Of a DNA stretch of 64,000 nt, positions 18,639 to 36,209 are shown one piece after another. Position 1 is the stretch's first letter. The number at the start of each line of letters is the position of its first letter. The position numbers and the translations under genes were made by a program. The stretch is taken from assembly GCA_041671325.1 (NCBI GenBank), contig JBAZBR010000002.1, positions 137,978 to 201,977 on the forward strand. The letters run 5' to 3'. The DNA is from Patescibacteria group bacterium (lineage in GTDB: Bacteria > Patescibacteriota > Patescibacteriia > PEXW01). The notes beneath the pieces are model-generated. The model had not been told where the DNA came from and did not search any database. It worked only from the letters and a program-made list of their open reading frames with translations.

Positions 18639-18668
18639 AATCGGGGATGGCAGGTTTGAAATATTTGA

Positions 18669-18770: not shown

Positions 18771-18772
18771 AT

Positions 18773-22374: not shown

Positions 22375-24291
22375 ATGCCAAAGATACTCGGAATCGATTT
22401 AGGGACAACCAACTCTTGCATGGCCGTCATTGAAGGCGGCGAACCCAAGGTGTTGGAAAATAAAGAAGGCAATCGTACTACGCCCTCTGTTGTTGCGGTT
22501 TCCAAAACCGGCGAAAGGTTAGTCGGCCAAGTGGCCAAGCGCCAAGCCGTGGTTAACCCGGAAAACACTTTGTATTCCATCAAACGCCTTATTGGCCGAA
22601 GATGGGATGATGAAGAAATCCAAAGGGATTTGAAAGTCCTACCCTTCAAAATGGTCCAAGCTGGCGTGGGCGTGAAAATCATCATGTCTGGCAAGGAATA
22701 TACCCCGCAAGAAGTTTCCGCCATGATTTTGCAGAAAATGAAAGAAGATGCGGAAACCAAATTGGGTGAAAAAATTGAAGAAGCCGTGATCACGGTCCCA
22801 GCATATTTTGACGATAGCCAAAGACAAGCCACCAAAGACGCGGGTGAAATCGCAGGGCTAAAAGTCCGCCGCATAATCAATGAACCCACAGCTGCGGCTT
22901 TAGCCTATGGTTTTAATAAGAAGAAGGATGAAAAAATCGCAGTCTATGATTTGGGCGGCGGCACTTTTGATATTTCCATCTTGGAAGTCAGCAATGACAC
23001 GGTGGAAGTGAAAGCCACTAATGGCGACACCCACTTAGGCGGTGATGATTTTGACCAAAGGATTATCCATTGGATAATTGATGAATTTAAAAAAGACCAA
23101 GGCATTGATCTTTCCAAAGACCAAATGGCTTTGCAGCGCCTGAAAGAATCCGCGGAAAAAGCCAAGCATGAACTTTCCACCACCACGGAAACGGAAATCA
23201 ACCAGCCTTTCATTACCACAGACGCTTCGGGTCCCAAACATTTGGTTTTGAAAATGTCCAGATCCAAATTGGAACAATTAGTCGGCGATTTAGTCGAGAA
23301 GACTTTAGAACCAACCAAAAAAGCTTTGGATGACGCGGGCTTGAAAACTTCAGACATCAACGAAGTGGTCATGGTTGGCGGTATGACCCGCATGCCTTTG
23401 GTCCAAGCCACAGTTGAAAAATTCTTTGGTAAAAAGCCTCACTTGGGTGTTAACCCGGATGAAGTGGTAGCCATTGGCGCGGCCGTCCAAGCCGGAGTTT
23501 TGCAAGGCGAAGTTAGGGATGTCTTATTGCTGGATGTCACGCCATTATCTTTGGGCTTGGAAACTTTAGGCAGTGTCATGACACCTTTGATCGAACGCAA
23601 CACCACTATTCCAACATCCAAATCCCAAGTCTTTTCCACGGCCGCTGATAACCAAACCAGCGTGGAAATCCACGTGCTCCAAGGCGAAAGGCCCATGGCC
23701 AATGACAACAAGTCTTTGGGCCGCTTTATCCTTTCTGGCATTCCGCCAGCGCCCCGCGGCGTGCCGCAAGTGGAAGTGACTTTTGACATTGATGCCAACG
23801 GCATTTTGAATGTCAAAGCCAAAGATAAAGCCACCAGCAAAGAGCAAAGCATTACCATTACCGCTTCCACGGGTCTTTCCAAAGACGAAGTGGAAAGGAT
23901 GAAGCAGGAAGCCCAGGCCAATGCCGAAGTGGACAAGAAGAAAAAGGAATTGATTGACACCCGCAACCTGGCCGAGAACTTGGTCTTTACCGCGGAAAAA
24001 TCCCTGAAAGACGCAGGCGACAAAGTCCCCAAGGACGTGAAAAAAGAAATTGAGGAAAAGATTGAAGCCGTGAAAAAGGTTAAGGACAGTGATGACAAAG
24101 ACGCCATTAAAAAAGCTTCTGATGACTTAGGTCAGACTATCCAGAAGATTGGGCAGGCGATGTATAAGGACCAACAACCACCTCAAGGAACCCCCTCGGC
24201 AAGCTCGGGGCCTGCGGCAGGAGCGAATGGCGAAGAGCCTAAAAATGATAAAGGTCCAGTGGATGCGGCTTATACTGAAGTTAAGAAGTAA
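22375..24291 (+). CDS. dnaK: molecular chaperone DnaK (Hsp70)
   Basis: Canonical Hsp70 motifs IDLGTTNS and DLGGGTFD; 638 aa. Confidence 0.97.
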
Positions 24292-24296
24292 CAAAA

Positions 24297-24625
24297 TGGC
24301 TAGAATTCCTTTTAATGCAGAACAACACCCCCATCCAAGTAGACTGGATGCAATTGACTCGATACGAATTCACCCGAGGAGCTATGGCGTATTGAATGCT
24401 GGTCAGCATTCTTTGAAGACCAAACCCAGCATTCAAGTACACATTCTTTCGGACCAAGTGGGTAATCGAGGGGTTGATTATAAGGAGGTTATGCTTGGGA
24501 GTCCGGAAAAGTTCACATTAACCTACAGAATTGAAAACAGGACTGACGCTATAGCTTTCGCATATATTACTAAGGAAAATGGTGACAGAGCGGCAGGTGC
24601 CAAGCATGAGGAGGTTAAGAAATAA
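24297..24625 (+). CDS. hypothetical protein, 109 aa
   Basis: ORF immediately after the dnaK stop; the track ORF extends back into dnaK. Confidence 0.35.
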
Positions 24626-24660: not shown

Positions 24661-25302
24661 ATGGAAGAATTACCAAAAGACCAACCAAATGTGTCAATAT
24701 CCCCAAACGTTACAAATGGTACTGCTTATCCGAAACCTGTTGATCTAATTTTTGAAGAATCCGAGAAGCAATTTCTTTCAAGATTACGAAATCTTGGTGT
24801 AATTCCAGATGACTTAGTTGCATTGCAAGAAGTCCGACCCGAAGCATTGGATATTCATGAACGTGAACTTTTAAGCCAGTTAACTGATGTTGAGCAAGAA
24901 ATTTTTAAGCAGTCTTTACTGGCTTATGGTTGGTTGTCTTACACTTTGGCAACCATGGGCTTGATGAGGGTGCTCGAGAGTTGTGTAGAGCTATTATTTA
25001 ACAAAGAACAAATTGAGAATCCGAAGCGACCTAACCCACCTAATCAGGCAGACCCTGAAATTTGCAAAAAATGCGAAATTTGCCAAACGTATTTTTCAGG
25101 ACTAAAGGCAAAGATTGAAAAATTATCAGAACAAACAAAAAATGAACAAGTAAAAAATTACCTATTACCAGTTATCGAGTTTTTAAAACGACTTGGGCAA
25201 TCTAAAAAACATATAAATTCTGAACTAGCTGATAAAACTGTGGCCCGTCAATTAATAGCTTCAATAATCTCATTATTAAAAAGTATAAAAAATGAAACCT
25301 GA
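24661..25302 (+). CDS. hypothetical protein, 213 aa, with a CxxCxxC cluster
   Basis: Coding-like ORF; no family recognised. Confidence 0.45.
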   Translation: MEELPKDQPNVSISPNVTNGTAYPKPVDLIFEESEKQFLSRLRNLGVIPDDLVALQEVRPEALDIHERELLSQLTDVEQEIFKQSLLAYGWLSYTLATMGLMRVLESCVELLFNKEQIENPKRPNPPNQADPEICKKCEICQTYFSGLKAKIEKLSEQTKNEQVKNYLLPVIEFLKRLGQSKKHINSELADKTVARQLIASIISLLKSIKNET

Positions 25303-25579
25303 TCAAATTTCAATTAAGATTGATGATGCAACCATGAAAGGCGTTTATGCCAATATGATGAGCGTTTCCCATTCCAAAGAGGAATTTCTCTTGGATTTTT
25401 TGAATATCTACCCCTTACAACAAGCGGGGATTGCCACCTCTCGGGTAATTGTCTCGCCTGGGCATATGAAAAGGATAGTGAATGCCCTGCAGGACAATTT
25501 GAAAAAATACGAAGGCAGTTTTGGTAAAATTCAAGAAGCTGATGCGCCCACCAGCGGGGAAGTTGGTTTCCAGGGTTAA
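25292..25579 (+). CDS. DUF3467-like small conserved protein, copy A
   Basis: KGVYANMMSVSHSKEEFLLDF pattern. It is 88% nt identical to 33511-33801. The DUF assignment is from memory. Confidence 0.6.
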   Translation: MKPDQISIKIDDATMKGVYANMMSVSHSKEEFLLDFLNIYPLQQAGIATSRVIVSPGHMKRIVNALQDNLKKYEGSFGKIQEADAPTSGEVGFQG

Positions 25580-25600
25580 TAATAATTTAAAACATTTTAT

Positions 25601-25837
25601 ATGAAGAACAAATTAAATTCTCAACTAAAGAAGAAAATGTTGAGGTATATAAGGTACGACAGATTTTTACGCGAGTATCGAAATCAATTCATTTCCAGTT
25701 TTAAGAACGGTATAAAAACTCAAACCGCAAAAAAATTATTAACTAGCGATGAATTAACTAGAATTTCAGTCATGAATAAGCATTTAAAGAAATTAGAGCA
25801 ACAGTATATAATTTCTGTTCGTAAATTTATATTTTAA
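25601..25837 (+). CDS. hypothetical basic protein, 78 aa
   Basis: Short Lys/Arg-rich ORF. Confidence 0.35.
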   Translation: MKNKLNSQLKKKMLRYIRYDRFLREYRNQFISSFKNGIKTQTAKKLLTSDELTRISVMNKHLKKLEQQYIISVRKFIF

Positions 25838-25849
25838 TTATCTAATTTT

Positions 25850-26188
25850 ATGACTTGCCAAAACTGCGGGCATTTAAATCAAGAAGATGCAAAATTTTGT
25901 ATAAATTGCGGAAAAGTATTAGTAAAATCTATCGAACAAAAAGTAAATGCACAAACAGTGGTAACAGTTAATGATAGTAAGAACAAAAAAGTAAAAAAGA
26001 AACATTATGGTCAACTGGCGTTTATTTTTATTGTTTTTGCAACATTAATGCAGAATTCAACACCGGAACCGGACACCACAGGAAGGATTACTTTTTTTGT
26101 AATCCAAATATTATTAGCATTTTTTGGTATGTATTTCTTGGTACGTTGGATAATGTATTTATTTAAGAAAAAAGATTCAAAGAAATAG
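25850..26188 (+). CDS. zinc-ribbon domain membrane protein
   Basis: N-terminal CQNCG...CINCG and two C-terminal TM helices. Confidence 0.5.
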   Translation: MTCQNCGHLNQEDAKFCINCGKVLVKSIEQKVNAQTVVTVNDSKNKKVKKKHYGQLAFIFIVFATLMQNSTPEPDTTGRITFFVIQILLAFFGMYFLVRWIMYLFKKKDSKK

Positions 26189-26200
26189 AAAAGTTTTATT

Positions 26201-26290
26201 TCCTCCGCTTCCACCTTTACCTGCCGATGAGGCAGGTCCCGCCCGCCTCGCTCCGTGAAACGGAGCAGGTCGCCCACGGGGTGGGGTTTT
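26201..26290. repeat. array-module GC-rich repeat (class 1), left-most copy
   Basis: TCCTCCGCTTCCACC...CGGGGTGGGGTTTTT; shares its core with the other copies. Confidence 0.7.
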
Positions 26291-26295
26291 TAGCA

Positions 26296-26330
26296 AAAAG
26301 ATAAACCAGCACCTTGTGCTGGTTTGTAGA
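26296..26330 (-). terminator. terminator of cassette gene 1
   Basis: ACCAGCAC-AAGG-TGCTGGT hairpin, with a T-run on the minus strand. Confidence 0.55.
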
Positions 26331-26345
26331 TTTTGATAAGTCGAC

Positions 26346-26570
26346 TTAATGTGCCTGGCAGAGCGAAAGGCTTTGTTTTAGTTTTGCAACATCACCCTCA
26401 GTACCCCCGACAATTTCATAAATTACAGTACTGGTTGCTTGTTCTGTTTGTACAAGCCGTACGGGTAAAGGGGTAAGAGCATTTAATGACCCAACTGTTA
26501 GTTTAACTAACTTGTCCCATTCTTCGGGGGTTTCGACGTCACTTGAGTTCAATTGAGCGATCATTTTCAT
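26346..26570 (-). CDS. cassette gene 1: hypothetical protein, 74 aa
   Basis: GGAG SD; own promoter and terminator. Confidence 0.5.
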   Translation of the reverse strand: MKMIAQLNSSDVETPEEWDKLVKLTVGSLNALTPLPVRLVQTEQATSTVIYEIVGGTEGDVAKLKQSLSLCQAH

Positions 26571-26596
26571 TATCTCTTCTCCTGTGTTTTCGTTTT

Positions 26597-26640
26597 ATTT
26601 GACTTGATGTTAATTCGAAGTCTTTACCCTGTCAATCCTC
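26597..26640 (-). promoter_or_regulatory. sigma70-type promoter of cassette gene 1, fused to a class-1 repeat
   Basis: Minus-strand TTGACA-17-TAACAT. The -35 is the reverse complement of the repeat-initial TGTCAA. Confidence 0.55.
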
Positions 26641-26675
26641 CTCCGCTTCCACCTTAGGTAGGCGAGGGGTTTTTA
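26631..26675. repeat. class-1 repeat, short copy
   Basis: TGTCAATCCTCCTCCGCTTCCACC...GGGGTTTTT. Confidence 0.65.
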
Positions 26676-26678
26676 GAT

Positions 26679-26707
26679 TTGACATTTATAACTACCGATT
26701 GTAAAGT
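26679..26707 (+). promoter_or_regulatory. sigma70-type promoter of the GNAT gene
   Basis: TTGACA-17-TAAAGT. Confidence 0.5.
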
Positions 26708-26748
26708 ATTCCATTAAACATAAAAATAATTAGCTGTGGAGGTTTACA

Positions 26749-27165
26749 ATGCAATTTAGGTTTTACACTGAACAAGACTACGAAACCGTAGCGGGATTCT
26801 TCAAACAATCTGGCCAGTATGATCCAACTTGGGATACGGCCGAGAACCTTAAGGAAAAGATTACCCGGTTTCCGACCTCAATCATTGTTTGCATAGAGGG
26901 CGGCGAGGTAGTGGCAAGCGTCTTTACCATGGAAGACGGCTGGGGGACTTTCATTTATCGACTAGTTGTTCGGCCAGACATGCAAAAACAGGGCATAGGC
27001 AGGGCGCTGATGGCATTCGCGGAAATGACCTTGAAGCAAAAAGGCAAGAAAGAAGTCGCGATATTTGTCCATGACACCCGCCAAGACCTGCTCGAGTGGT
27101 ATGCGGACCAGGGTTATCTTTTTGATGACCCCAAGAGCTACCGCTCATTGTTCAAAAAACTTTAA
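26749..27165 (+). CDS. GNAT family N-acetyltransferase
   Basis: Acetyl-CoA binding motif (Q/RxxGxG/A: QKQGIGRALM). Confidence 0.8.
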   Translation: MQFRFYTEQDYETVAGFFKQSGQYDPTWDTAENLKEKITRFPTSIIVCIEGGEVVASVFTMEDGWGTFIYRLVVRPDMQKQGIGRALMAFAEMTLKQKGKKEVAIFVHDTRQDLLEWYADQGYLFDDPKSYRSLFKKL

Positions 27166-27189
27166 ATTGATTTGGGCGACCCTTATCCG

Positions 27190-27262
27190 GCCGCCCTTTT
27201 TTGTATTTCTTTTCCACTTTCACCTTCTCCTTGCCTCGTCCGCGGGGTATGGTTTTGAGAAT
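27190..27262. repeat. class-1 repeat, degenerate copy (TTGTAT replaces TTGTCA)
   Basis: TTGTATTTCTTTTCCACTTTCACC...CCGCGGGGTATGGTTTTG. Confidence 0.55.
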
Positions 27263-27278
27263 ATGGTAAAATAAAAAT

Positions 27279-27794
27279 ATGAAAGTTATTCTTTACATGG
27301 CAATTACCGCGAATGGCATGATCGCGAAACGCAATAATGACACGAGTTGGGTTTCCAAGGAGGAATGGAAAAGTTACAACGCAACCGTACTTCACGCGGG
27401 CTGTTTGGTCGTAGGCCGAAAAACCTATGACATCATGGTAAAGGAAGGTGAGTTTGCGAAGTTGAAAGAGGTCTTTGTCGTGGTTGTTAGCCATCAGGAA
27501 GTTGAAATGGTGGACCCGCTGCATCAGGTGGCTCATACACCACAAGAGGCATTGCAATTGCTTAAAGATTATCCAGAGGTTATTATTGGCGGTGGCGGGA
27601 ACATAAATAGTGAGTTTTTGAAAGAGAAGCTCGTTGACGAAATGTATTTAGATATTGAACCGAAACTTATTGGCAAAGGTATTCGATTATTTGAAAATCT
27701 TGATTTGGATTTTAATTTGGTTCTTCTTGATACAAAAGCCATTTCACCAAATGTGGTTCAGTTGCATTATAAAGTGATTAAGTCGGTTTCGTAA
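27279..27794 (+). CDS. dihydrofolate reductase-like protein (RibD C-terminal domain family)
   Basis: MKVILYMAITANGMIA N-terminus and VIIGGG motif, typical of the bacterial YwjB/DHFR-like family. Confidence 0.7.
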   Translation: MKVILYMAITANGMIAKRNNDTSWVSKEEWKSYNATVLHAGCLVVGRKTYDIMVKEGEFAKLKEVFVVVVSHQEVEMVDPLHQVAHTPQEALQLLKDYPEVIIGGGGNINSEFLKEKLVDEMYLDIEPKLIGKGIRLFENLDLDFNLVLLDTKAISPNVVQLHYKVIKSVS

Positions 27795-27836
27795 TTCTTC
27801 GCTTCCCCCTTCCTACGCCCGCGGGGTGGGATTTTG
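27795..27836. repeat. class-1 repeat, truncated copy
   Basis: CGCTTCCCCCTTCC...CCCGCGGGGTGGGATTTTGG. Confidence 0.55.
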
Positions 27837-27837
27837 G

Positions 27838-27975
27838 ATAAATGAATACATCCTCTCCTATATAGGAGAGGATGGCCGAAGGCCAGGTGAGGTTCACAAA
27901 AAACTAATTTCAAACTTTCCGAGTTCCCTCACTCGCCTACGGCACCCTCTCCCAGAGGGAGAGGGGATTTTTGGT
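27838..27975. repeat. class-2 palindromic repeat, copy A of a near-identical ~180-bp direct repeat (with terminator)
   Basis: CCTCTCCTATATAGGAGAGG...CCCTCTCCC-AGA-GGGAGAGGG; near-identical to 28549-28690. Confidence 0.75.
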
Positions 27976-27980
27976 AAAGC

Positions 27981-28012
27981 AAAAACCCCGAGGAAAATCC
28001 ACGGGGTTTTGC
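27981..28012 (-). terminator. conserved hairpin terminator of cassette gene 2
   Basis: CCCCGAGGAAAATCCACGGGG with a T-run on the minus strand; about 4 near-identical copies in the array. Confidence 0.65.
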
Positions 28013-28031
28013 AAAGAGTGTGTTCGGATAT

Positions 28032-28397
28032 TTATTCCGGTTGGTTACGCTTTACCATTTCGACCGGAACCCATTTTCCGCTGGCGAGTACCGCCTCTTC
28101 CAAACGTGCCGCTTCAGCCAGGCATTCGTCAAGTTTGGTGTAGGGCTTGTCGAGAGGATTGACCCTACAGCCAGAATAGGCCGAATGGGCCGTGCTGGGG
28201 TCAAGGTAATTGTAAAGGTGGAATACGGGATAAAGCGTCCCGTCTCCCAGTCCATCGCCTTTCCCATTGATATTGAGCCAGATCTCTTTCCGTATGAAAA
28301 TCGATGAGGCTTGAGTACCATCGGGTTTCCACAAAAAGCAACAACAGTGCTGATCGGCTACGAGCTGAGATGCAAAGTTTTCAGGAGGTTGGTACAT
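28032..28397 (-). CDS. cassette gene 2: hypothetical protein, 121 aa
   Basis: Own promoter and terminator. Confidence 0.5.
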   Translation of the reverse strand: MYQPPENFASQLVADQHCCCFLWKPDGTQASSIFIRKEIWLNINGKGDGLGDGTLYPVFHLYNYLDPSTAHSAYSGCRVNPLDKPYTKLDECLAEAARLEEAVLASGKWVPVEMVKRNQPE

Positions 28398-28453
28398 CTG
28401 TATTCTCCTTTTCTCCTAAAAATGTTTTTACTATTTGTAATTTGACTAAACAG

Positions 28454-28480
28454 ATTATCACAAAATAGTTTTATTGTCAA
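28454..28480 (-). promoter_or_regulatory. sigma70 promoter of cassette gene 2
   Basis: TTGACA-16-ATAATC with a TGTG extended -10. Confidence 0.6.
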
Positions 28481-28545
28481 CCCTATCCGCTTCCACCTCC
28501 TCGCCAAAAAGGCGGGCAAGCCCTCCGCCCGCGGGGTTGGGTGTT
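28474..28545. repeat. class-1 repeat
   Basis: TTGTCAACCCTATCCGCTTCCACCTCC...AAAAAGGCGGGCAAGCCCTCCGCCCGCGGGG. Confidence 0.7.
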
Positions 28546-28548
28546 GGA

Positions 28549-28690
28549 TAAATGAATACATCCTCTCCTATATAGGAGAGGATGGCCGAAGGCCAGGTGA
28601 GGTTCACAAAAAACTAATTTCAAACTTTCCGAGTTCCCTCACTCGCCTACGGCACCCTCTCCCAGAGGGAGAGGGGATTTTTGGTAAAGC
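28549..28690. repeat. class-2 palindromic repeat, copy B
   Basis: Near-identical to 27838-27975. Confidence 0.75.
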
Positions 28691-28725
28691 AAAAACCCCG
28701 AGGAAAATCCACGGGGTTTTTACAA
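28691..28725 (-). terminator. conserved hairpin terminator of cassette gene 3
   Basis: CCCCGAGGAAAATCCACGGGG plus a T-run. Confidence 0.65.
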
Positions 28726-28748
28726 AGAGAGTAGCTTAGTCGGAACAA

Positions 28749-29288
28749 TTATTCCGACCAGTAACGAGCGAAGCAGTCGCGGAAGTATTGGTTGTTACTG
28801 ATTTTGGCGATCCGCGTCGCTGCTTCAGAAGTCATCCACTGCATACGAACGGCCAGGGCGAGCATAAGGGCTTCGTCGGCCAGTTCGGGTAAGCCCGAAA
28901 AGGAGATTGCGAAGGGACCGTAATGATCGCAGACGATCATATTGCACAGTATGGCACCGGCGTACTTCTCGTTTTCGACGCGGGTCTGCCAGCTGCTCAC
29001 GGCCTCTTTCCCTCGCTTAACGAAATCAGCGATTAAGCGATCGGCTTTTTCGGTCGCAATGTTTGCGTACTTTAGCGTACCAATTGGCAGTTCGCCGATC
29101 GGTACTGTCAGAAGAGCCGGATTGTTGCTTATGTATTGCGGGCGATTGCTTGGGGTGAGCTTCATTACGAAGAATCCACCTCGCCGGTCTTTACGGTCGT
29201 AGGCTGCCGAGTTGCACATTTCAAGCAAGAGCTCTTCAACTGCTTCAACTACATTGTTGCGAAAGTTCTTGTCAACGATCTCGTTCAT
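28749..29288 (-). CDS. cassette gene 3: hypothetical protein, 179 aa, possibly GlcG/HbpS (DUF336)-like
   Basis: C-terminal GPFAISFSGLPELADEALMLALA resembles the GxxGVSGGxxxQDxxxAxAA motif; weak. Confidence 0.5.
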   Translation of the reverse strand: MNEIVDKNFRNNVVEAVEELLLEMCNSAAYDRKDRRGGFFVMKLTPSNRPQYISNNPALLTVPIGELPIGTLKYANIATEKADRLIADFVKRGKEAVSSWQTRVENEKYAGAILCNMIVCDHYGPFAISFSGLPELADEALMLALAVRMQWMTSEAATRIAKISNNQYFRDCFARYWSE

Positions 29289-29338
29289 GAAAAACCTCCA
29301 GTTTATCTTTCGTTTCTTGGTTTCTTTCTAAGTCACTT

Positions 29339-29367
29339 AATCTAGCAAAAAAGTTTATTGCTGTCAA
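29339..29367 (-). promoter_or_regulatory. sigma70 promoter of cassette gene 3
   Basis: TTGACA-17-TAGATT. Confidence 0.6.
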
Positions 29368-29437
29368 TCCTCCTCCGCTCTCCCTCCCCGCCCAAAAGGC
29401 GGGCAAGCCTTCCGCCCCTGCCCGCGGGGTAGAGAGG
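29362..29437. repeat. class-1 repeat
   Basis: TGTCAATCCTCCTCCGCTC...CCCAAAAGGCGGGCAAGCC...CCCGCGGGG. Confidence 0.7.
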
Positions 29438-29531
29438 TTAGGGTAAGGAATAACGTGTTTGACAGATTAGTAGCGCCATATTAAAGTTGTTCAACAAAGA
29501 AATCATTTGATCTTTATATCTTGGAGGTAGT

Positions 29532-29768
29532 ATGAAAGTGATTGTCAGTGAAAGAGAAGTAACCGGAGATAGGGGTTGCTATGCTAACCCACCGGTTGGC
29601 GCTTCAGTAATCGAAGGTGAGGAAATCCATTTTGCAAATGTTGACTTAACCGCGGATGGGGATAGTCTAAAAATCCGCATTGACAATGACCGGATGTGCT
29701 ATCTTTTTATTCAACGGGATGGAGATACCTTACGTATCAGCAATATCGGTTACGATGTTAAATCGTAA
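29532..29768 (+). CDS. plus-strand gene inside the array: hypothetical protein, 78 aa
   Basis: SD GGAGGTAGT; followed by its own terminator. Confidence 0.5.
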   Translation: MKVIVSEREVTGDRGCYANPPVGASVIEGEEIHFANVDLTADGDSLKIRIDNDRMCYLFIQRDGDTLRISNIGYDVKS

Positions 29769-29774
29769 ATTCAA

Positions 29775-29806
29775 GCGGGATTTCTCCTCCCGCTTTTTAT
29801 TAACGG
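29775..29806 (+). terminator. intrinsic terminator
   Basis: AGCGGGA-TTTCTCC-TCCCGCT followed by TTTT. Confidence 0.6.
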
Positions 29807-29823
29807 TCGGTAAATAATTCTAT

Positions 29824-29898
29824 GCTTCCACTTCCACGGCTTACGCCGTTCCCGCCCAAAGGGCGGGCAAGCCCTCCGCTAGCGGGGTGGGGTTTTTG
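29824..29898. repeat. class-1 repeat without an attached minus-strand promoter
   Basis: GCTTCCACTTCCACGG...CCCGCCC-AAA-GGGCGGG...GGGGTGGGGTTTTTGG. Confidence 0.65.
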
Positions 29899-29908
29899 GA
29901 TAATACAA

Positions 29909-29935
29909 AAACCGCTGGGCGAACCATACGGTTTT
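29909..29935 (-). terminator. terminator of cassette gene 4
   Basis: AACCG...CGGTT hairpin plus a T-run. Confidence 0.5.
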
Positions 29936-29957
29936 TAAAGATGTTGGCGTTGAAGGT

Positions 29958-30233
29958 CTATCGCGTTTCCACGAAGGTAAGCGTTCCTTCAAACACCCCG
30001 AACGAGCTGCTTTCCTGGAATAAGTAATTTTCGGGTTTTTCGTCCGCACGCATGGTACGGGTGAGAACCCACAGGTCGTCTTCTTTCCAGGTGGCGTTTA
30101 CCAGCTTCGTTCCTGCCGGTAATGCAATGGTTTCTTCGCCACCAAAATTGCGGACTCGCTGTTGCTTGGTACAACCACTGAAGCAACCGAAGATCAGCAA
30201 TACGGCCAGGGAAAGAATCAATGTCTTTTTCAA
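29958..30233 (-). CDS. cassette gene 4: small lipoprotein, 91 aa
   Basis: Signal peptide with lipobox FSG-C. Confidence 0.55.
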   Translation of the reverse strand: MKKTLILSLAVLLIFGCFSGCTKQQRVRNFGGEETIALPAGTKLVNATWKEDDLWVLTRTMRADEKPENYLFQESSSFGVFEGTLTFVETR

Positions 30234-30259
30234 AATACCTCCCGACTTTCTCGATGGTT

Positions 30260-30302
30260 TAATTTAATTTCGTGTAACCATAGATGATAGCATAAATAGA
30301 TA
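30260..30302 (-). promoter_or_regulatory. sigma70 promoter of cassette gene 4
   Basis: TTGACA-16/17-TATCAT. The -35 sits in one arm of a 19-bp inverted duplication. Confidence 0.5.
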
Positions 30303-30384
30303 TTTTGTCAACCCCGTTAGAGTTTAGTTTTAATGACTCTAATATATGGGGTAATTAATCATAATAACTCTAACGGGGTCAACC
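30297..30384. repeat. 19-bp perfect inverted repeat duplicating the repeat/-35 junction
   Basis: GTCAACCCCGTTAGAGTT (30297-30315) and AACTCTAACGGGGTCAACC (30366-30384). Confidence 0.6.
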
Positions 30385-30440
30385 CTCCTCCGCTTCCATC
30401 TCCCGCCCAAAGGGCGGGCAAGCCTCGCCCGCGGGGTGAG
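30378..30440. repeat. class-1 repeat
   Basis: CCTCCTCCGCTTCCATCTCCCGCCCAAAGGGCGGGCAAGCCTCGCCCGCGGGG. Confidence 0.7.
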
Positions 30441-30532
30441 GGAAAGATTGCTTCGCAAAACCTCGCAATGACGTAGAAAAAGAAAACCGACCCGCTCTAA
30501 GTGAGGGATCGGTAGAAATTAAACGGCGTCAG

Positions 30533-30850
30533 TTAGAATCTGGGTGGAAGTTCACCTTTGCGTAATCGGGAATATATTGCCGGTATCTGGGATGGCTTCG
30601 CATAGAATTCGATGCCATATGTCCCGACGTAGTCGCCGTCGTACTTGATAACCCACACATCTTCCATGGTGAGTTTGGCTTTTGGAAAGTCCTTTTTCGC
30701 CTCTTTAAAGAGGCGAAAGATATAGTCTAGGTAGCCATGCTGGAGGGAGGTCCTGATTATGACTAGCAGAGTTCCCTTTGGCCGGCCATTATATGGATAG
30801 CACTCTTTGATGAGCTCTACATCCTTCTGTTTCAACAAATCAGTTGCCAT
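30533..30850 (-). CDS. cassette gene 5: hypothetical protein, 105 aa
   Basis: SD AAGGAG; own promoter. Confidence 0.5.
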   Translation of the reverse strand: MATDLLKQKDVELIKECYPYNGRPKGTLLVIIRTSLQHGYLDYIFRLFKEAKKDFPKAKLTMEDVWVIKYDGDYVGTYGIEFYAKPSQIPAIYSRLRKGELPPRF

Positions 30851-30894
30851 ATCTAATTACTCCTTTTTGTTTTTGACAGTTTTGTTATAGAAGA

Positions 30895-30922
30895 ATCTAA
30901 CAAACCATCTGAAATGTGTCAA
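30895..30922 (-). promoter_or_regulatory. sigma70 promoter of cassette gene 5
   Basis: TTGACA-16-TAGATT. Confidence 0.6.
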
Positions 30923-31050
30923 TCCTTTCCGCTTCCACCTCCCCTCCTTCGCCCTTCGGCTTCCGCCTACGCCAAATGCTTCGGCGGACAAGTCGGAGGG
31001 CGGGTCGCCCAAAAGGCGGGCAAGCCCTCCGCCCGCGGGGTGTATTTTTT
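30917..31050. repeat. class-1 repeat, long form (about 134 bp)
   Basis: Adds CTTCGCCCTTCGGCTTCCGCCTACGCCAAATGCTTCGGCGGACAAGTCGGAGGGCGGGTCG before the common 3' half. Plus-strand UUCG tetraloop hairpins. Almost identical to 32400-32510. Confidence 0.75.
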
Positions 31051-31055
31051 AGCAA

Positions 31056-31092
31056 AACAAAAACCCCGGGAAGAATCCACGGGGTTTTGCAA
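31056..31092 (-). terminator. conserved hairpin terminator of cassette gene 6
   Basis: CCCCGGGAAGAATCCACGGGG plus a T-run. Confidence 0.65.
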
Positions 31093-31107
31093 AGGTCATC
31101 TTTTGAT

Positions 31108-31398
31108 TTAAAACTTCATGTAGAAACCCTGGAGGAGCATATACTCTACGTCGACATGTTCTGTGCCGACAGTGATTTTTTGGAGTATATCCAGGATTTC
31201 AGCATTGTAGTCGTTCGGCGTAGACACGAGCCTGATGTACGGTTGGCGTGCACCCCTGACGTCAATCACGTAACTTCCAGGGAATACCGTGATAACGTAT
31301 TCGACTTCGTAATCCTTGCCCCTGAAGGCATTTTGAATCTGAGACGTTAACTCCTCGATCTCGTTTTGTTCAAACCCGATAATTTCAATATTCGGCAT
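31108..31398 (-). CDS. cassette gene 6: hypothetical protein, 96 aa, possible tautomerase-superfamily member
   Basis: Start at MPNIEII with SD AAGGAGG; the N-terminal Met-Pro-x-I-x-I resembles 4-OT/MIF tautomerases. The longer track ORF runs through the promoter. Confidence 0.5.
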   Translation of the reverse strand: MPNIEIIGFEQNEIEELTSQIQNAFRGKDYEVEYVITVFPGSYVIDVRGARQPYIRLVSTPNDYNAEILDILQKITVGTEHVDVEYMLLQGFYMKF

Positions 31399-31444
31399 TT
31401 GAACCTCCTTTTCAAGTAAAATGTTCATGTTTGAATAACGAAAA

Positions 31445-31473
31445 AGTATAGCGTAAATTTTTATTTTTGTCAA
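31445..31473 (-). promoter_or_regulatory. sigma70 promoter of cassette gene 6
   Basis: TTGACA-17-TATACT. Confidence 0.6.
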
Positions 31474-31509
31474 TCCTTTTCCGCTTTTACTATTGATTTT
31501 TGGAATAAG

Positions 31510-31540
31510 AAAAACCCATCCATAGAGGACGGGTTTTCCA
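31510..31540 (-). terminator. terminator of cassette gene 7
   Basis: AACCCGTCC...GGATGGGTT hairpin plus a T-run. Confidence 0.5.
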
Positions 31541-31556
31541 ATGAGATATTTTGGTG

Positions 31557-31898
31557 TTAGGCGGTCACCGGATGATTTTTGAAGTAATCCGGATCGACGA
31601 GCAGCAGAATTTGCTCGCACGCACCAGCGAAGCTCTGCTCATCCACGATGCAACCCCATTTCCTCACGTACAGCCGGGAGAAATCCCAGGTGTTTATTTT
31701 GTTTTTCTCCAGGAGTTCTTCCAGGAGAAGGATGATCGCGTTATGGGTCGTGAACATTTCAGGGGCAGAGTAAACGTGCTCGGCTTTTTTCTGCTCGAGG
31801 CTCTGCTTTGTTCTTTCGAGCAGTTCCTGCAGGGCTCTGCGTAGCTCGTCGTTTTCAGGCAGAATAATATCAATTCCGCCCTTTGCCAGCTCTGTCAT
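31557..31898 (-). CDS. cassette gene 7: hypothetical protein, 113 aa
   Basis: Start at MTELAKGG with SD GAGGAGG, downstream of the promoter. Confidence 0.5.
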   Translation of the reverse strand: MTELAKGGIDIILPENDELRRALQELLERTKQSLEQKKAEHVYSAPEMFTTHNAIILLLEELLEKNKINTWDFSRLYVRKWGCIVDEQSFAGACEQILLLVDPDYFKNHPVTA

Positions 31899-31934
31899 GT
31901 GTACCTCCTCGTTTTTGTTTTCGTAATTTATAAC

Positions 31935-31968
31935 AGCAAAGTATTGCATAGTAAATAAATTTTGTCAA
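31935..31968 (-). promoter_or_regulatory. sigma70 promoter of cassette gene 7
   Basis: TTGACA-17-AATACT. Confidence 0.5.
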
Positions 31969-32027
31969 TCCTTTCCGCTTCCTCCTTTTGCCCTCTACGC
32001 TAGCGTGGTGTATTTTTTATCAAAGCA
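31963..32027. repeat. class-1 repeat, short variant
   Basis: TGTCAATCCTTTCCGCTTCCTCC...GCTAGCGTGGTGTATTTTTT. Confidence 0.65.
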
Positions 32028-32028
32028 A

Positions 32029-32058
32029 AAACCCCGGGAAGAATCCACGTGGTTTTTA
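32029..32058 (-). terminator. conserved hairpin terminator of cassette gene 8
   Basis: CCCCGGGAAGAATCCACGTGG plus a T-run. Confidence 0.6.
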
Positions 32059-32069
32059 GTAAAGAGGGT

Positions 32070-32330
32070 TTAGACAACATTGAGTGCTCGCTTGATGATG
32101 TCAACGGTAATTTCCAAGCTCATTATATTAATCCGAAGCAACAATTCAGTTTTCGGTAAGGCGTCTATGGCCGCGCACCATTCCGGATGCGTGTTCATTA
32201 GCGTTGCCCGCCCACCCTTATCCTTGTCAGCGGTTTTCCAAAAGAGATCTTTAATGTCTTGGATTTCTGCTGGCGTGCGTGCTTGTAAAAGTTTTGTTAT
32301 TTCATCAAGAGCTTTTTCAAAATCTGTCAT
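32070..32330 (-). CDS. cassette gene 8: hypothetical protein, 86 aa
   Basis: SD AAGGAAGG; own promoter. Confidence 0.5.
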   Translation of the reverse strand: MTDFEKALDEITKLLQARTPAEIQDIKDLFWKTADKDKGGRATLMNTHPEWCAAIDALPKTELLLRINIMSLEITVDIIKRALNVV

Positions 32331-32376
32331 TTATTGCCTTCCTTTGTTTTTGTAAATTTCACTTATTTAATAAGGG

Positions 32377-32405
32377 AACTTAACAAATAATAAAATTCTT
32401 GTCAA
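32377..32405 (-). promoter_or_regulatory. sigma70 promoter of cassette gene 8
   Basis: TTGACA-17-TAAGTT. Confidence 0.6.
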
Positions 32406-32510
32406 TCCTTTCCGCTTCCACCTCCCCTCCTTCGCCCTTCGGCTTCCGCCTACGCCAAATGCTTCGGCGGACAAGTCGGAGGGCGGGTCGTCCGCCCGCG
32501 GGATCCCGTG
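32400..32510. repeat. class-1 repeat, long form, second copy
   Basis: About 95% identical to 30917-31050 over the shared part. Confidence 0.75.
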
Positions 32511-32522
32511 GAATATTAAATC

Positions 32523-32553
32523 AGACCTCACAATTGTGAAGTCTGATCGAAAC
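32523..32553 (-). terminator. long perfect hairpin 3' of cassette gene 9
   Basis: ATCAGAC-CTCACAATTGTGAAG-GTCTGAT. The loop is itself palindromic; the T-tract is weak. Confidence 0.35.
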
Positions 32554-32574
32554 AGCAGTTTGTTTTGTTGATCC

Positions 32575-33072
32575 TCAGAATGAAACATGCTCCCGAATTA
32601 CCCGTACAATCTGTTTGGTCATCTCATCGAACCCAAACACGGGCGACCAACATGCCCAGATTTCATAGGGTTCAAGGTGAACACTCTTTATGCCTTGGAT
32701 TCCAAAGAGTGCTTTCACCAAACTGGTTTGCTTGTCCGGTTGGGCACCAGGATAGTGGAAAGAAAGGCGCTGTGCTTCAGTAATTGGCTCAGAAACATCG
32801 AAGTAGCAGTCGCTACGCCCTCCGTTCTTGCTCGTCAGAGCGATACGTAGATTTGGGTCCCAGTTCGTCCGTCGATTCATCGGAACCTCGCCGAGTTTAA
32901 GCATCCAGGTACCGGCCCTGACGAAAAATTTTCGTCCTGGGCAGCAAAGAAGCAGGTGCTTCAATAGGTTTGAAACGTACAACATAGTTACCCCATGCCT
33001 TGCGCTGTTGTTTGTTGGCTGTCTTTTGACGCAAGGCTGCGTATTGGGCAAGACAGATAATCCCAAACGCAT
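32575..33072 (-). CDS. cassette gene 9: hypothetical protein, 165 aa
   Basis: Start ambiguous: MRLGL at 33072 has a short leader and no SD; MLYVSN at 32985 has a weak SD. The track ORF runs upstream through the promoter. Confidence 0.4.
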   Translation of the reverse strand: MRLGLSVLPNTQPCVKRQPTNNSARHGVTMLYVSNLLKHLLLCCPGRKFFVRAGTWMLKLGEVPMNRRTNWDPNLRIALTSKNGGRSDCYFDVSEPITEAQRLSFHYPGAQPDKQTSLVKALFGIQGIKSVHLEPYEIWACWSPVFGFDEMTKQIVRVIREHVSF

Positions 33073-33088
33073 ATTTTTGTAACTGAGT

Positions 33089-33117
33089 ATAGTACCGTAC
33101 TTTTTGTTTTTTGTCAA
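33089..33117 (-). promoter_or_regulatory. sigma70 promoter of cassette gene 9
   Basis: TTGACA-17-TACTAT. Confidence 0.55.
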
Positions 33118-33150
33118 CCCTTTTCCACTTGAGCCCTTTACCCTAAAAAC
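33112..33150. repeat. class-1 repeat, degenerate right-most copy
   Basis: TGTCAACCCTTTTCCACTTGAGCCC. Confidence 0.5.
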
Positions 33151-33156
33151 AACGGG

Positions 33157-33190
33157 AAAAAATAGCCCCGAACCGGTGTTCGGGGCTTTC
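33157..33190 (-). terminator. intrinsic terminator on the minus strand
   Basis: GCCCCGAAC-ACCG-GTTCGGGGC plus a T-run. Confidence 0.6.
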
Positions 33191-33251
33191 AAGGAGGGAT
33201 ATAACTCACCAAGTGGTTATCCTTGGCGAAATCATTATAAGAAAAACGAAA

Positions 33252-33288
33252 TATTTGTCAAAAAAAAGGAGCCCCAAGGATGTCTTGG
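33252..33288 (-). terminator. intrinsic terminator on the minus strand
   Basis: GAGCCCCAAG-ACATCC-TTGGGGCTC followed by an 8-T run. Confidence 0.6.
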
Positions 33289-33510
33289 GGCTCACAAGGA
33301 AAGGAGGTCAGAATGAAAACACTGAAGTAGTACCGGAACTGCTAAGAAAGGAACCCGAGATCCGCGAACGAGAGAAGGAAGTATTTGTTTTAGCTATATA
33401 AAATATAATATAATCCTTTAAAGCCGTCAAATCACTTATAAAATCGTTAAGATTGTTAATAAGGCCCAATTAAACTAAAATGTATTTATCTCTTAATTAT
33501 TAAAAAACAT

Positions 33511-33801
33511 ATGAACCAACAACAGCAAATTCAAATTAAAATTGACGACACCATCATGAAAGGCGTTTATGCCAATATGATGAGCGTATCCCATTCCAAG
33601 GAGGAATTCCTTTTGGATTTTTTGAATATTTACCCGCTCCAGCAGGCTGGGATTGCCACCGCCAGGGTGATTGTCTCCCCAGGCCATATGAAAAGGATTG
33701 TGAATGCCCTGCAGGATAATCTGAAAAAATACGAGAGCAGTTTTGGCGCGATTAAGGAAGCTGATGCGCCCACCAGCGGGGAAGTGGGATTTAAGGGGTA
33801 A
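33511..33801 (+). CDS. DUF3467-like small conserved protein, copy B
   Basis: Paralog of 25292-25579. Differences are mostly synonymous. Confidence 0.6.
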   Translation: MNQQQQIQIKIDDTIMKGVYANMMSVSHSKEEFLLDFLNIYPLQQAGIATARVIVSPGHMKRIVNALQDNLKKYESSFGAIKEADAPTSGEVGFKG

Positions 33802-33915: not shown

Positions 33916-35097
33916 ATGCCAGAACCAAAACCTAATATTCCAAATTCAAAATTTACGCCAAAACACCATATCAAATGGAAGGTGATTTTTATTGCTTTGG
34001 TGACTTTTATTTTCGCCGGAGTTTTTTGGTGGACTTTGGATATGGCCTTAAGGGTTAAATTAGTGGGCTTGCCAGCCATAACCCAGCTTTGGCAATTATT
34101 GATTGCCATTGCTTTCTTTTGCCTATTCCTGGCTTTGTTCGGGGTATTTGCCATGACCCGTGGCCGGAAAAGTTTTTGGCAAACCGCTTTGGTGGCTTTA
34201 ACATCTGCAGCTGTCCTAATTCCTTTTTTCCCAACCCGTTATGCCACCCTTGGCGCAGCCGGGATTTTTTTAATCGGCCTGGTCTTGTGGGCTTATAACG
34301 TGGCAGGGGATGTGAATTCCAGGAAAAAATTCCAGCCGCATTACACCATTCATGCGGGCTTTGGCACGGGCTTGGTTTTACTTTTGATTGGCATATCTTT
34401 GTGTTATTACACTTCTTTAGGCGATTCCAAAAAAACCACGGAAGAAGTCAGGCAAAATATTGTGGTGGCTGCCAGGAACAGTATGAATTTAATTCTTAGC
34501 GCCCAAGTCAAGGATTATCGGGGCACCATGACTCTGGATGAATTCTTAAGTTTGATTGCAACTGATAAATTCGGGGAAATTGTGGTGCCGGAATTGACTA
34601 AGACTTTGGGTTCAGATGCGCAAAAAGAATCGGCTTACAAGGAAATCATCAGCCAGCTAAGGAAAGTCAACCCGGTTTTTGAAAATCAGAAAACCACCGA
34701 TGAAATCGAGCAAAAACTTGATGCCCAAATCCAGGCCGAGCAGGAAATTTTGCAAAAAGCGGCCTTAGCCCAGTTGTCAGCGGTCCAAAAGCAGCTTTTG
34801 GAAGAAGCCCGGCGGGAATTTTTGCTAACTTTCAAGATTGAAGCCACCGGTGCCGAACCCATGAATGAAATAATTGATAAAATCATCAATCGCCGCGTTA
34901 TCCAGTATGTGGATCCTTATGAAAAGACCATCCCGCCCATTTTGGCATTATCTTTCTTCTTTATCATTGAATTGATAAGTTTTGTCTACCGTTATGTGAT
35001 TTTTGCTTTGGCGCCGATCATTGCCTGGGTTTACAAAAAACTAGGATTGATTAAGATAAGCAAAGCCCAAGAAGAAGTTGAAAGGGTGGAATTATAA
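33916..35097 (+). CDS. hypothetical membrane protein with a C-terminal coiled-coil region, 393 aa
   Basis: Four or more N-terminal TM helices, then a charged helical region. Confidence 0.5.
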
Positions 35098-35102: not shown

Positions 35103-36209
35103 ATGGCCAAAGATTATTATGATATTTTAGGCGTTAGCAAAAGCGCCAGCGAGGATGAAATCAAGAAAGCTTTCCGCAAAAAAGCCCATGAGCTGCATCC
35201 TGATAAAGCGCATGGTGACGAGGCAAAATTTAAGGAAGCTAATGAGGCTTACCAAGTTTTATCAAATAAAGAAAAACGCAACCAGTATGACCAATACGGC
35301 CAGACTTTTGACCAAGCCAGCAGGCAAGGCGGGGCGCCTGCTGGCGGCTTTGGCGGTTTCGATCCCAGCGGTTTTCAGCAAGGCAATGTGGATTTTGGCG
35401 ACCTAGGCGATATCTTTGGCGACATTTTTGGTTTTGGCGGCGGCCGTTCAAAAAGAAGCCGGGCAAAAGGTGGCAGAGATATTCAGGCAGATTTGAATTT
35501 AAGTTTTCGCGAAGCGGTTTTTGGCGCGGAAAAATCTTTTGAAATGTATAAAAGCGTAATTTGCGGCCATTGCAGTGGTACAGGCGCAGAACCAGGCTCG
35601 AAAATGCACACCTGCCAGACTTGTAAAGGCCAAGGTCAAGTCCAAAGAATAGTCAATTCTTTTTTTGGCCAGATTGCGCAAAATTCCATTTGCCCGACTT
35701 GCGAAGGCGCTGGCCAGATACCCAGCCAAAAATGCCGGCAATGCAATGGTAATGGCAGGATAAAAAAGAACCAGGTCATAAAAGTCTCAGTACCGGCTGG
35801 CATTGACGATGGTGAAACCTTGCGTTTGTCTAATCAGGGTGAAGCTGGCGAGAAAGGCGGCAGTGCTGGAGATTTGTATTTGCGCATCAGGGTCCAACCA
35901 GATTCTAGGTTTGTCCGTAAAAATGCGGATATCTTAAGCCAAGTGGATATTAATTTTCCTGCTGCAGCTTTGGGTACAAAATTAGAAATTGAAACAATAG
36001 ACGGAGCAATCTCAATGAAAATTCCTGCGGGCACCCAGTCGGGCAAAGTGTTCAGGTTGAAAGACAAAGGTATTCCTTATTTGCGCAAGCGCGGCCGGGG
36101 CGACCATTTAATTACTGTGAATGTGGTCACGCCCACCAGGCTGCATGGCAAAAAGAAAAAACTTTTGGAAGAATTGGCGGAAATGGAAGGGGATGAAATC
36201 TCAGAATAA
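35103..36209 (+). CDS. dnaJ: molecular chaperone DnaJ
   Basis: J-domain HPD motif, Gly-rich linker, and four CxxCxGxG zinc-finger repeats. Confidence 0.95.

Follow-up and report, generated by a model that had tools for sequence, protein, structure and literature searches.

A stretch of 64,000 nucleotides from a Patescibacteria group bacterium (positions 137,978 to 201,977 of contig JBAZBR010000002.1 in assembly GCA_041671325.1) carries two paralogous genes of the DUF3467 family, copy A and copy B, which stand within a heat-shock locus on either side of an array of small variable genes. The whole of this stretch is called the window here and all coordinates are in its numbering; where the two copies are compared with those of other loci, which bear L numbers, they are designated W_A and W_B. 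The locus begins with a CIRCE operator followed by hrcA, grpE and hsp20, all three assigned by Pfam, and continues with a zinc-finger open reading frame (ORF), dnaK, the orphan gene p213, copy A, p78, a zinc-ribbon gene, the array, copy B, a gene for a membrane protein of 393 amino acids (aa) and dnaJ, with cysS and dus further downstream of dnaJ. The features to which the text refers most are as follows.

19766-19792, + strand: CIRCE operator 5′ of hrcA, a perfect TTAGCACTC-N9-GAGTGCTAA (0 in 100 shuffles), marking where the heat-shock locus with both copies begins
22375-24291, + strand: dnaK, a 638-aa ORF 72-93% identical to the dnaK of relatives, with the HSP70 Pfam match on the identical gene of L002; the conserved left flank
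24596-24625, + strand: relic of a dnaK 3′ terminus (..GAKHEEVKK, then stop), identical at 25 of 30 nt to the end of dnaK in relatives (DAKYEEVKK, then stop); 36 nt before p213
24661-25302, + strand: orphan gene p213; its stop and the start of copy A overlap, and it marks the A slot
25292-25579, + strand: DUF3467 copy A, 95 aa, the dnaK-proximal paralogue (PF11950, E 1.2e-23)
25601-25837, + strand: p78, a basic 78-aa protein just inside copy A, with an isoelectric point of 10.6
25850-26188, + strand: zinc-ribbon protein of 112 aa (Zn_Ribbon_1, E 4.9e-08, N-terminal) with a hydrophobic window at about residues 78-105
26190-33400, both strands: the variable array, with about 13 small one-gene transcription units
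33453-33481, + strand: promoter-like site TTGTTA-17-TAAAAT from a consensus scan
33511-33801, + strand: DUF3467 copy B, 96 aa, by its position the orthologue of the single-copy gene elsewhere in Patescibacteria (PF11950, E 4.5e-24)
33916-35097, + strand: mem393, the 393-aa membrane protein, with homologues 26-77% identical directly after DUF3467 in 15 related loci and no Pfam match
35103-36209, + strand: dnaJ, with DnaJ, DnaJ_C and DnaJ_CXXCXGXG matches on the identical gene of L001; the conserved right flank

Both copies are clear members of the family. Of the 92 positions of the PF11950 profile, copy A matches 12-91 with 83.3 bits and copy B 11-91 with 84.8 bits, the curated cut-off being 25 bits; 370 homologues were found at E ≤ 1e-5, and PF11950 was present on all 120 among the matches listed. 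A repeat finder paired 25304-25579 with 33526-33801 at 85% identity, and an alignment that included the flanks has the similarity running from about codon 5 or 6 to the stop codon, with neither flank alike. The possibility of a larger duplicated block was considered and rejected: p213, p78 and the zinc-ribbon protein are unlike the 393-aa membrane protein, and sharing is limited to the DUF3467 coding body.

The original prediction for this DNA, made from the sequence by itself, had placed both genes exactly, at 25292-25579 and 33511-33801 and on the + strand in each case, and the basic 78-aa protein and zinc-ribbon membrane protein that it put just inside, both at the copy A end, are borne out by the isoelectric point of the one and the zinc ribbon and hydrophobic segment of the other. 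Its identity figures were somewhat too high. The copies are homologous, but the proteins agree at 84/96 positions, or 87.5%, rather than about 90%, and the DNA is identical at 83.5% of positions when aligned codons are counted, or at 84.8% in the ungapped tract of 276 nt, rather than at about 88%. That the differences are mostly synonymous is correct (31.5 synonymous and 15.5 non-synonymous by the Nei-Gojobori method), and the proposal of an old duplication under purifying selection agrees with a synonymous divergence (dS) of 0.95, a non-synonymous divergence (dN) of 0.072 and a dN/dS ratio (omega) of 0.075. In the two other genomes with two copies the omega of the pair is 0.048 (L007) and 0.042 (L025). 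All three pairs are near-saturated, with dS of 0.95-2.2, and therefore none is recent. The guanine plus cytosine (GC) content of copy A is 0.42, which is host-like, with 0.35 for p213, 0.27 for p78 and 0.30 for the zinc-ribbon gene (0.26-0.32 at the third codon positions of these three), and over most of the window it is about 0.37-0.50. Copy A, near the level of the window and set among AT-rich neighbours, accordingly looks native, and the neighbours foreign or fast-evolving.

A scan of one genome per species gave a comparison set of 80 loci with a DUF3467 relative, on which the window proteins were mapped. dnaK is upstream of DUF3467 in 38 of the 80 and dnaJ downstream in 40, with both present in 33 (L104 is an example of the layout). 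The loci with the dnaK-DUF3467-dnaJ layout are all from Patescibacteria-type genomes, where the DUF3467 gene is often just 10-150 nt 5′ of dnaJ and is usually single; the layout is absent around the homologues in Desulfobacterota, Nitrospirota, Dehalococcoidia and one Aquicultorales genome. From the conserved dnaK and dnaJ neighbourhood it follows that DUF3467 is a resident gene of the Patescibacteria dnaK-dnaJ locus. The nearest relative is Candidatus Kerfeldbacteria CG08_land_8_20_14_0_20_43_14, at 93% protein identity. In the window it is copy B that is followed by mem393 and then dnaJ, as in L003-L014, and in alignment the 58 nt 5′ of copy B (33453-33510) are common to the sister species of L083-L093, so that the putative promoter within them is conserved as well. 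Judged by this synteny, copy B is the positional orthologue of the usual single-copy gene. No functional study of DUF3467 was found by a full-text literature search, nor was a solved structure related to it by sequence found; an AlphaFold model made with 50 homologues has three strands and a long helix (predicted local distance difference test score, pLDDT, 73.6, of moderate confidence). The only hint of what DUF3467 does comes from its conserved place between dnaK and dnaJ, by which it is a candidate lineage-specific co-chaperone.

The slot of copy A has its own neighbours. p213 has no Pfam or NCBIfam match, and among 5.8 billion proteins it has a single homologue family, P0126, at 56% identity. 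The three P0126 contigs have the order dnaK 3′ end, p213 homologue, overlapping 95-aa DUF3467 gene, DUF6941 gene and membrane-protein gene. One of them, L101, comes from the same sample as the window and from a different organism, and its dnaK stop is 17 nt 5′ of the p213 homologue. The N-terminus is MKPDQISIK in copy A and MKPNQVSVK in L101, with MNQQQQIQIK in B-slot copies everywhere; among the loci first examined the upstream sequence and first few codons of copy A were unique. Neighbours of this type are found in L007 too, where a DUF6941 gene (PF22091, E 5.7e-10) and then a gene for a small membrane protein come after the copy nearer to dnaK. Since p213 and DUF6941 are common neighbours, the A slot is thus common to at least three lineages, whose DUF3467 proteins are 51-67% identical. 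With the p213 alignment as query, a scan of metagenomes gave no contig beyond the one already known, and a hidden Markov model of DUF6941, run over all fetched loci, matched in L007 and L101-L103 alone (L108 and L102 being one and the same contig). p78 has no family match and no homologue in any related locus. On the other side of p213, the dnaK relic closes a 109-aa ORF (24296-24625) that directly follows dnaK, and the actual dnaK here ends in DAAYTEVKK and stop. The tail of that ORF is either a rearrangement scar at the dnaK end or part of a small protein mimicking the DnaK tail.

When gene bodies are compared, with identities counted from residue 11, the grouping is not by slot. W_A has an identity of 0.91 to W_B, and of 0.61 and 0.67 to the A-slot copies L101_A and L007_A; L101_A has 0.85 to L005_B, and L007_A has 0.89 to L007_B. 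Bootstrapped neighbour-joining unites the L007 pair at 99.7%, the L025 pair at 100%, W_A with W_B, L083 and L093 at 89%, and L101_A with L005_B at 75%. The proportion of synonymous sites that differ (pS) is lower between A and B, at 0.54, than between either copy and the sister species, at 0.70, whereas non-synonymous divergence is higher between A and B (0.072) than between a copy and the sister species (0.045-0.050). Copies within a genome are therefore more alike than positional orthologues across genomes, which is the hallmark of concerted evolution, and because the bodies of the genes sort by genome or clade and their neighbourhoods by slot, we infer past gene conversion. To this extent, and indirectly, the suggestion in the original prediction that the copies provide homology for recombination is supported as regards past recombination between them; that the 276-nt homology could delete the array or allow its exchange by recombination is conceivable on the same grounds. 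Clean chimeric copies of the Campbell type were considered and rejected, the informative sites being interspersed with no single switch point.

The distance between the copies is 8.2 kb in the window, 5.0 kb in L007 and 2.7 kb in L025, and in each case it is taken up by small, mostly unrelated genes. When the 38 loci with dnaK in view are counted together with the window, 11 have more than 1 kb between dnaK and the B-slot copy, and two copies are present in 3 of these 11 versus none of the 28 tight loci (Fisher P about 0.018, from our own arithmetic on locus counts). One-copy relatives with a variable dnaK-to-B region include L004, L006, L009, L014 and L017. Cargo in L095 and L096, which have one copy, consists of DHFR-like, HD_4, MazE-Fic and Trypco2 genes, and that of L009, again with one copy, of SEC-C-like, HD-domain-like and Fic-like ORFs as read from the sequence. 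A second copy in L009 was entertained and rejected, as the 59-nt similarity concerned is inside the HD-domain-like ORF (compare HD_4 in L007 and L095). In the CG08 sister species two alternative insertion sequence (IS) insertions, IS3-like or IS1595, diverge 159 nt 5′ of the copy-B orthologue, and L083-L093 (Kerfeldbacteria CG08 and a relative) have a Y1 (HUH) transposase gene, PF01797, between the copy-B orthologue and the membrane gene, e.g. at 879-1433 of L083. The dnaK-dnaJ gap is a long-lived accessory-gene hotspot, flanked by paralogues where the A slot survives. It had been proposed for the window that the copies bracket an array, with related genomes having both paralogues and nothing between them as the case against; the two-copy relatives L007 and L025 do not provide that case, as they too hold variable genes between their copies.

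Within the array of the window, two genes have Pfam assignments and the remaining ones are ten orphan ORFs, mostly on the − strand. Its main features, and one related unit elsewhere, are listed here.

26749-27165, + strand: GNAT gene (Pfam)
27279-27794, + strand: RibD_C/DHFR-like gene (Pfam)
27812-28010, + strand: 199-nt direct repeat, copy 1 (98%; family D3)
28522-28720, + strand: 199-nt direct repeat, copy 2 (98%; family D3)
29958-30233, − strand: p91m, a 91-aa protein with a lipoprotein-type signal, MKKTLILSLAVLLIFGCFSGC, matching phrog_12728 of unknown function (E 1.8e-26)
26205, 26643, 27214, 27799, 28487, 29375, 29824, 30390, 30929, 31481, 31975, 32412 and 33123: anchors of the junction units (repeat families D2 and D4-D10)
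7820-7860, − strand: isolated junction unit, TCTCCTCCGCTTCCACCTCCTGCCCAAGAGGTGG, 5′ of queH (7204-7857) and outside the array

The 13 junction units are imperfect palindromes of 53-145 nt with conserved arms and variable interiors. Their consensus has a C-rich left arm, (TTGTCAAYCC)-CCGCTTCCACCT, and a G-rich right arm, CGCCCGCGGGGTGGGG-TTTTT, and the CCGCTTCCACCT motif has 21 matches in the window, 12 of them in the array, versus 3.1 expected. The units are mosaic: the one at 30929 has the left arm of the unit at 32412 and the right arm of that at 31975, with the switch at CGCCCGCGGGGT (families D7 and D4). The edges of the units have ten perfect −35 boxes (TTGACA) with a −10 box at a distance of 16-17 nt, each directed at an individual ORF on one strand or the other. 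Like units bound the DHFR-like cassette of L095, and three such units are present in L009; the unit at 7820-7860 means that the repeat family is not strictly confined to the array. The single viral match to the junction motif, L100, was put down to chance, being inside a coding region of a high-GC phage-like contig. The pair of 199-nt repeats flanks one cassette (28032-28397, − strand) and has perfect palindromes at 27849-27874 and 27945-27965; its appearance is that of a recent duplication or of a MITE-like insert (MITE, miniature inverted-repeat transposable element). p91m is the only cassette clearly tied to a family seen in phages, the PHROG match of p78b being marginal.

At the right end of the array, just left of copy B, the − strand of 33150-33430 has two promoter-to-terminator units with no convincing ORF. 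One has TTGACA-16-TATAAT at 33261-33234 and a terminator at 33187-33164, and the other TTGACG-17-TATATT at 33430-33402 and a terminator at 33293-33269; they may specify small RNAs, for which the Rfam matches are sub-threshold only. There is also a second cluster, of very small membrane-protein ORFs, on the − strand at about 3400-5500. It has repeated flanking modules from a sequence family unlike that of the main array, with 4526-4567 the same as 4937-4978 at 100% and 4297-4335 resembling 5263-5301.

A further matter is whether copy A, the array and copy B are truly joined. ENA assembly ERZ27249449 divides the two copies between two contigs, L002 of 140 kb, which stops at window position 27974, and L001 of 618 kb, which starts at 28580. 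Both contig ends are inside the 199-nt 98% repeat, so the break is as expected of a k-mer assembler. An artefact would mean that two related populations were joined through this repeat and that the copies are alleles of different genomes. That public assembly of the same sample, with the copies on separate contigs ending in the repeat, is in keeping with it, as is the fact that at least one related organism in the sample has an A-type module of its own (L101). Against this, the join restores the universal dnaK...dnaJ order seen elsewhere, the species-specific CCGCTTCCACCT is on both sides of the break and otherwise at one unrelated site among the 80 genome loci, a second metagenome-assembled genome (MAG), from NCBI, has the two proteins 13 accession numbers apart (MFA6953603 and MFA6953616), and L007 and L025 have the two-copy layout on single long contigs. 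The window join is credible, and an artefact would be most surprising.

The arrangement is probably, though by no means certainly, the outcome of a history in which the two copies are resident ancient paralogues, a hotspot grew between them and split the operon, and gene conversion and selection keep both. The copies are better read as long-lived homology arms around the hotspot, and so as resident genes, than as its cargo. The ancestral layout would have been hrcA-grpE-(hsp20)-dnaK-DUF3467-(membrane protein)-dnaJ, with DUF3467 duplicated long ago in the lineage of the window. Copy A would have stayed with dnaK and become translationally coupled to the orphan p213, and copy B would have stayed with the membrane gene and dnaJ and have its own promoter-like upstream region. 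Accessory DNA would accumulate and turn over between the copies as self-contained units, each with its own TTGACA-type promoter and terminator, and these would have divided the former operon into two parts. From time to time one gene body would be copied onto the other by gene conversion, a non-reciprocal homologous recombination spanning the array, and as a result A and B would be more alike than slot orthologues in other genomes. The first 5-10 codons, which in copy A overlap the end of p213, would escape conversion, and both copies would remain under strong purifying selection. Given the homology, the selection, the synteny and the conflict between slot and gene tree described above, gene conversion is the probable cause of that conflict. 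Both copies may be kept through separate regulation, A with the CIRCE/HrcA-controlled dnaK side and B with dnaJ.

Several observations weigh against this history. A-like and B-like sites are interspersed along the gene with no discrete conversion tract visible, and stretches of identity reach no more than 33 and 29 nt in a 276-nt tract at 85%, which is not clearly above chance. Trees give little resolution of the branching among W_A, W_B, L083 and L093, with A+B at 59% at the nucleotide level. Orthology of the A slot draws on one p213 family, on three contigs of 2.1-2.4 kb from the same locus, and on one shared DUF6941 neighbour; the L101 organism is represented by its A-slot locus alone, and the A-slot copy of L025 has no marker gene in common with other A slots, so that its duplication may have been an independent event. 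That A and B are regulated separately is a suggestion from consensus promoter and terminator scans, and the AlphaFold model of DUF3467, itself of moderate confidence, has no significant match in the PDB.

If duplication had instead been independent and fairly recent in each lineage, for instance by unequal crossing-over, with insertion afterwards and no conversion, the similarity of the copies would reflect duplication age. The within-genome pairs are sisters in every tree, as this would predict, clear conversion tracts are lacking, and in L025 the A-slot copy has no neighbour in common with the other A-slot copies. But the window and L101 have in common p213 after dnaK, its overlap with the DUF3467 start and an unusual N-terminus, L101 and L007 have in common DUF6941 and a membrane protein after the A-slot copy, these neighbourhoods would need re-creation each time, and none of the three pairs, at dS 0.95-2.2, is recent; such a course of events is unlikely, though it deserves to be taken seriously. 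Much less can be said for an integrated mobile island that carried its own DUF3467 gene or duplicated its target, with the copies as att-like boundaries. The original prediction had raised the direct repeat as a possible edge of an inserted island, and direct repeats do flank heterogeneous DNA here, with GC from 0.27 to 0.50; the IS elements of the sister species are 159 nt before the ATG of the copy-B orthologue, and the dnaK relic at 24596-24625 attests to a past rearrangement at the left edge. An att-flanked island has short near-identical repeats, a partial target copy and an integrase. The repeats here are two complete genes at 85%, about 15% diverged, with a longest identical run of 33 nt, and are under purifying selection. 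Domain searches of window ORFs of at least 110 aa, the scope of all statements here on recombinases, found no integrase or other site-specific recombinase (e.g. Phage_integrase) anywhere in the 64 kb, and no tRNA is within 22 kb of the interval. Blastn of 25580-33510 gave no match in 50,697 phage or 72,556 plasmid records, from which DUF3467 is almost absent, and PADLOC defence models had no significant match among the array genes; a prophage, a plasmid and a defence island were each rejected in view of these results and of a single clear PHROG, of unknown function. In relatives with only one copy, this position is likewise taken by a variable region, and copy A is host-like in GC, unlike its AT-rich neighbours. 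With full-length diverged copies, no integrase, no canonical attC and no phage or plasmid match, the copies are therefore not att-type boundaries, the idea of an island edge is not sustained, and an island of this kind is highly improbable.

Alternatively the array could have been built by site-specific or single-strand recombination at the junction palindromes, on an integron-like platform or one like that of repetitive extragenic palindromic (REP) sequences and their REP-associated tyrosine transposases (RAYT), with the DUF3467 copies as mere neighbours. Thirteen units with conserved arms and variable interiors of 53-145 nt, their mosaic structure with a switch at CGCCCGCGGGGT, the same kind of unit bounding cassettes in the related L095 and L009, integron-like cargo (GNAT, DHFR-like and orphan genes here, toxin-antitoxin and Fic genes in relatives) and the Y1 (HUH) transposase gene beside the copy-B orthologue in the sister species all speak for it. 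Yet in the 64-kb window there is no IntI or other recombinase and no Y1 transposase (Y1_Tnp), and the Y1_Tnp gene beside the copy-B orthologue of the sister species has different flanking sequence. A regular-expression search of both strands for RYYYAAC...GTTRRRY pairs 50-150 nt apart gave 3 matches in the array, which are all within a single coding region (29644-29763) and away from the junction units, and such pairs are about as dense in the array as in the rest of the window; the junction units have no Rfam match. The cassettes have their own promoters and face both ways, in place of the promoterless, co-oriented cassettes of an integron. At least one unit, at 7820-7860, is outside the array, as for ordinary dispersed intergenic repeats, and the presence of two copies only with expanded gaps would be left unexplained. 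A cluster of attC sites lacking integron integrases (CALIN) requires no IntI, but a canonical integron was rejected because IntI, R′′/R′ pairs at the units and an Rfam family are all missing from the window in these searches. A platform of either known type, with the paralogues as bystanders, is thus rather unlikely. A more far-reaching version is a Patescibacteria-specific cassette-capture platform of a new kind, in which the palindromes, with −35 boxes at their ends and the switch at CGCCCGCGGGGT, would be recombination sites for an enzyme encoded elsewhere, e.g. a Y1/HUH transposase, and the DUF3467 copies would be kept as arms for RecA-dependent exchange or deletion of the array between related cells. 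It is rated low because no enzyme is in view and one unit is outside the array, and we regard it as doubtful.

Two transposase genes are present in the left part of the window.

18779-19660, − strand: IS3-like rve-type transposase gene, directly upstream of the CIRCE/hrcA promoter region and about 6 kb from the array
8526-9323, − strand: IS1595-family transposase gene, 17 kb left of the array

The 114 nt past the 3′ end of the rve gene (18665-18778) also match DNA just upstream of the copy-B orthologue in L093.

With the copies taken as resident paralogues around a hotspot, the heat-shock operon of bacteria with small genomes is host to a long-lived accessory-gene hotspot, and the locus is a compact natural case of concerted evolution across a variable insert. 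Its 276-nt arms set a scale at which homologous recombination still works in organisms that cannot yet be grown or manipulated. DUF3467 gains its first functional context in the near-universal dnaK-dnaJ slot of Patescibacteria, and that slot makes its protein a testable candidate co-chaperone. For annotation there is a warning that paralogue-flanked arrays break short-read assemblies and can pass for mobile islands.

A small accessory protein encoded in a dnaK operon has a precedent in DafA of Thermus thermophilus. As there, a protein of about 10 kDa is encoded beside or between dnaK and dnaJ and is conserved in its lineage, which suggests a chaperone-linked role; the likeness is by position and size only, DUF3467 having no characterised member. 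For the pair of copies the closest parallel is tufA/tufB in enterobacteria, the textbook case of concerted evolution of duplicated genes by gene conversion. In both cases two functional paralogues on one chromosome are more alike than are orthologues in other species, purifying selection acts on them, and grouping by genome stands against grouping by slot. In contrast to the tuf genes, the copies here are only 8.2 kb apart in direct orientation, with a variable array between them; their product is a 95-aa protein of unknown function, and the proposed conversion is old (dS about 1) and would have spared the first 5-10 codons. Hypervariable loci between conserved genes that serve as recombination arms are known from the pneumococcal capsule locus (dexB/aliA) and O-antigen clusters (galF/gnd). 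These have in common with the present locus a fixed address between conserved genes, different gene sets in relatives and no need for a dedicated integrase. The flanks here, however, are chaperone genes and a duplicated small gene, and the cargo is many unrelated one-gene units instead of one pathway.

For the junctions themselves the comparison is with two other types of system. Integron arrays and CALINs also have small, mostly orphan genes, imperfect palindromes of variable length with conserved ends, and GNAT and DHFR-like cargo. They differ in that the array here has no IntI in the window and no R′′/R′ (AAC/GTT) cores, that its cassettes have their own promoters and terminators and are mostly read in the direction opposite to that of the flanking operon, and that its repeat arms are conserved in sequence, C-rich on the left and G-rich on the right. 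Intergenic palindromes such as REPs and bacterial interspersed mosaic elements (BIMEs), and MITE-like ones, are the other; some, e.g. the Correia elements of Neisseria, have outward promoters. Here too the palindromes are GC-rich, imperfect and intergenic, clustered as well as dispersed, some give a −35 box, and a Y1 transposase gene is at the locus in the sister species; the difference is that this window has no RAYT gene, that 12 of the 13 clear units are in one array and that no target-site duplications were identified. The paralogue pair thus adds a case of concerted evolution, and the gap between its members one of a hotspot enclosed by conserved genes; both phenomena are known, the place is unusual, and the cassette junctions are the more novel thread.

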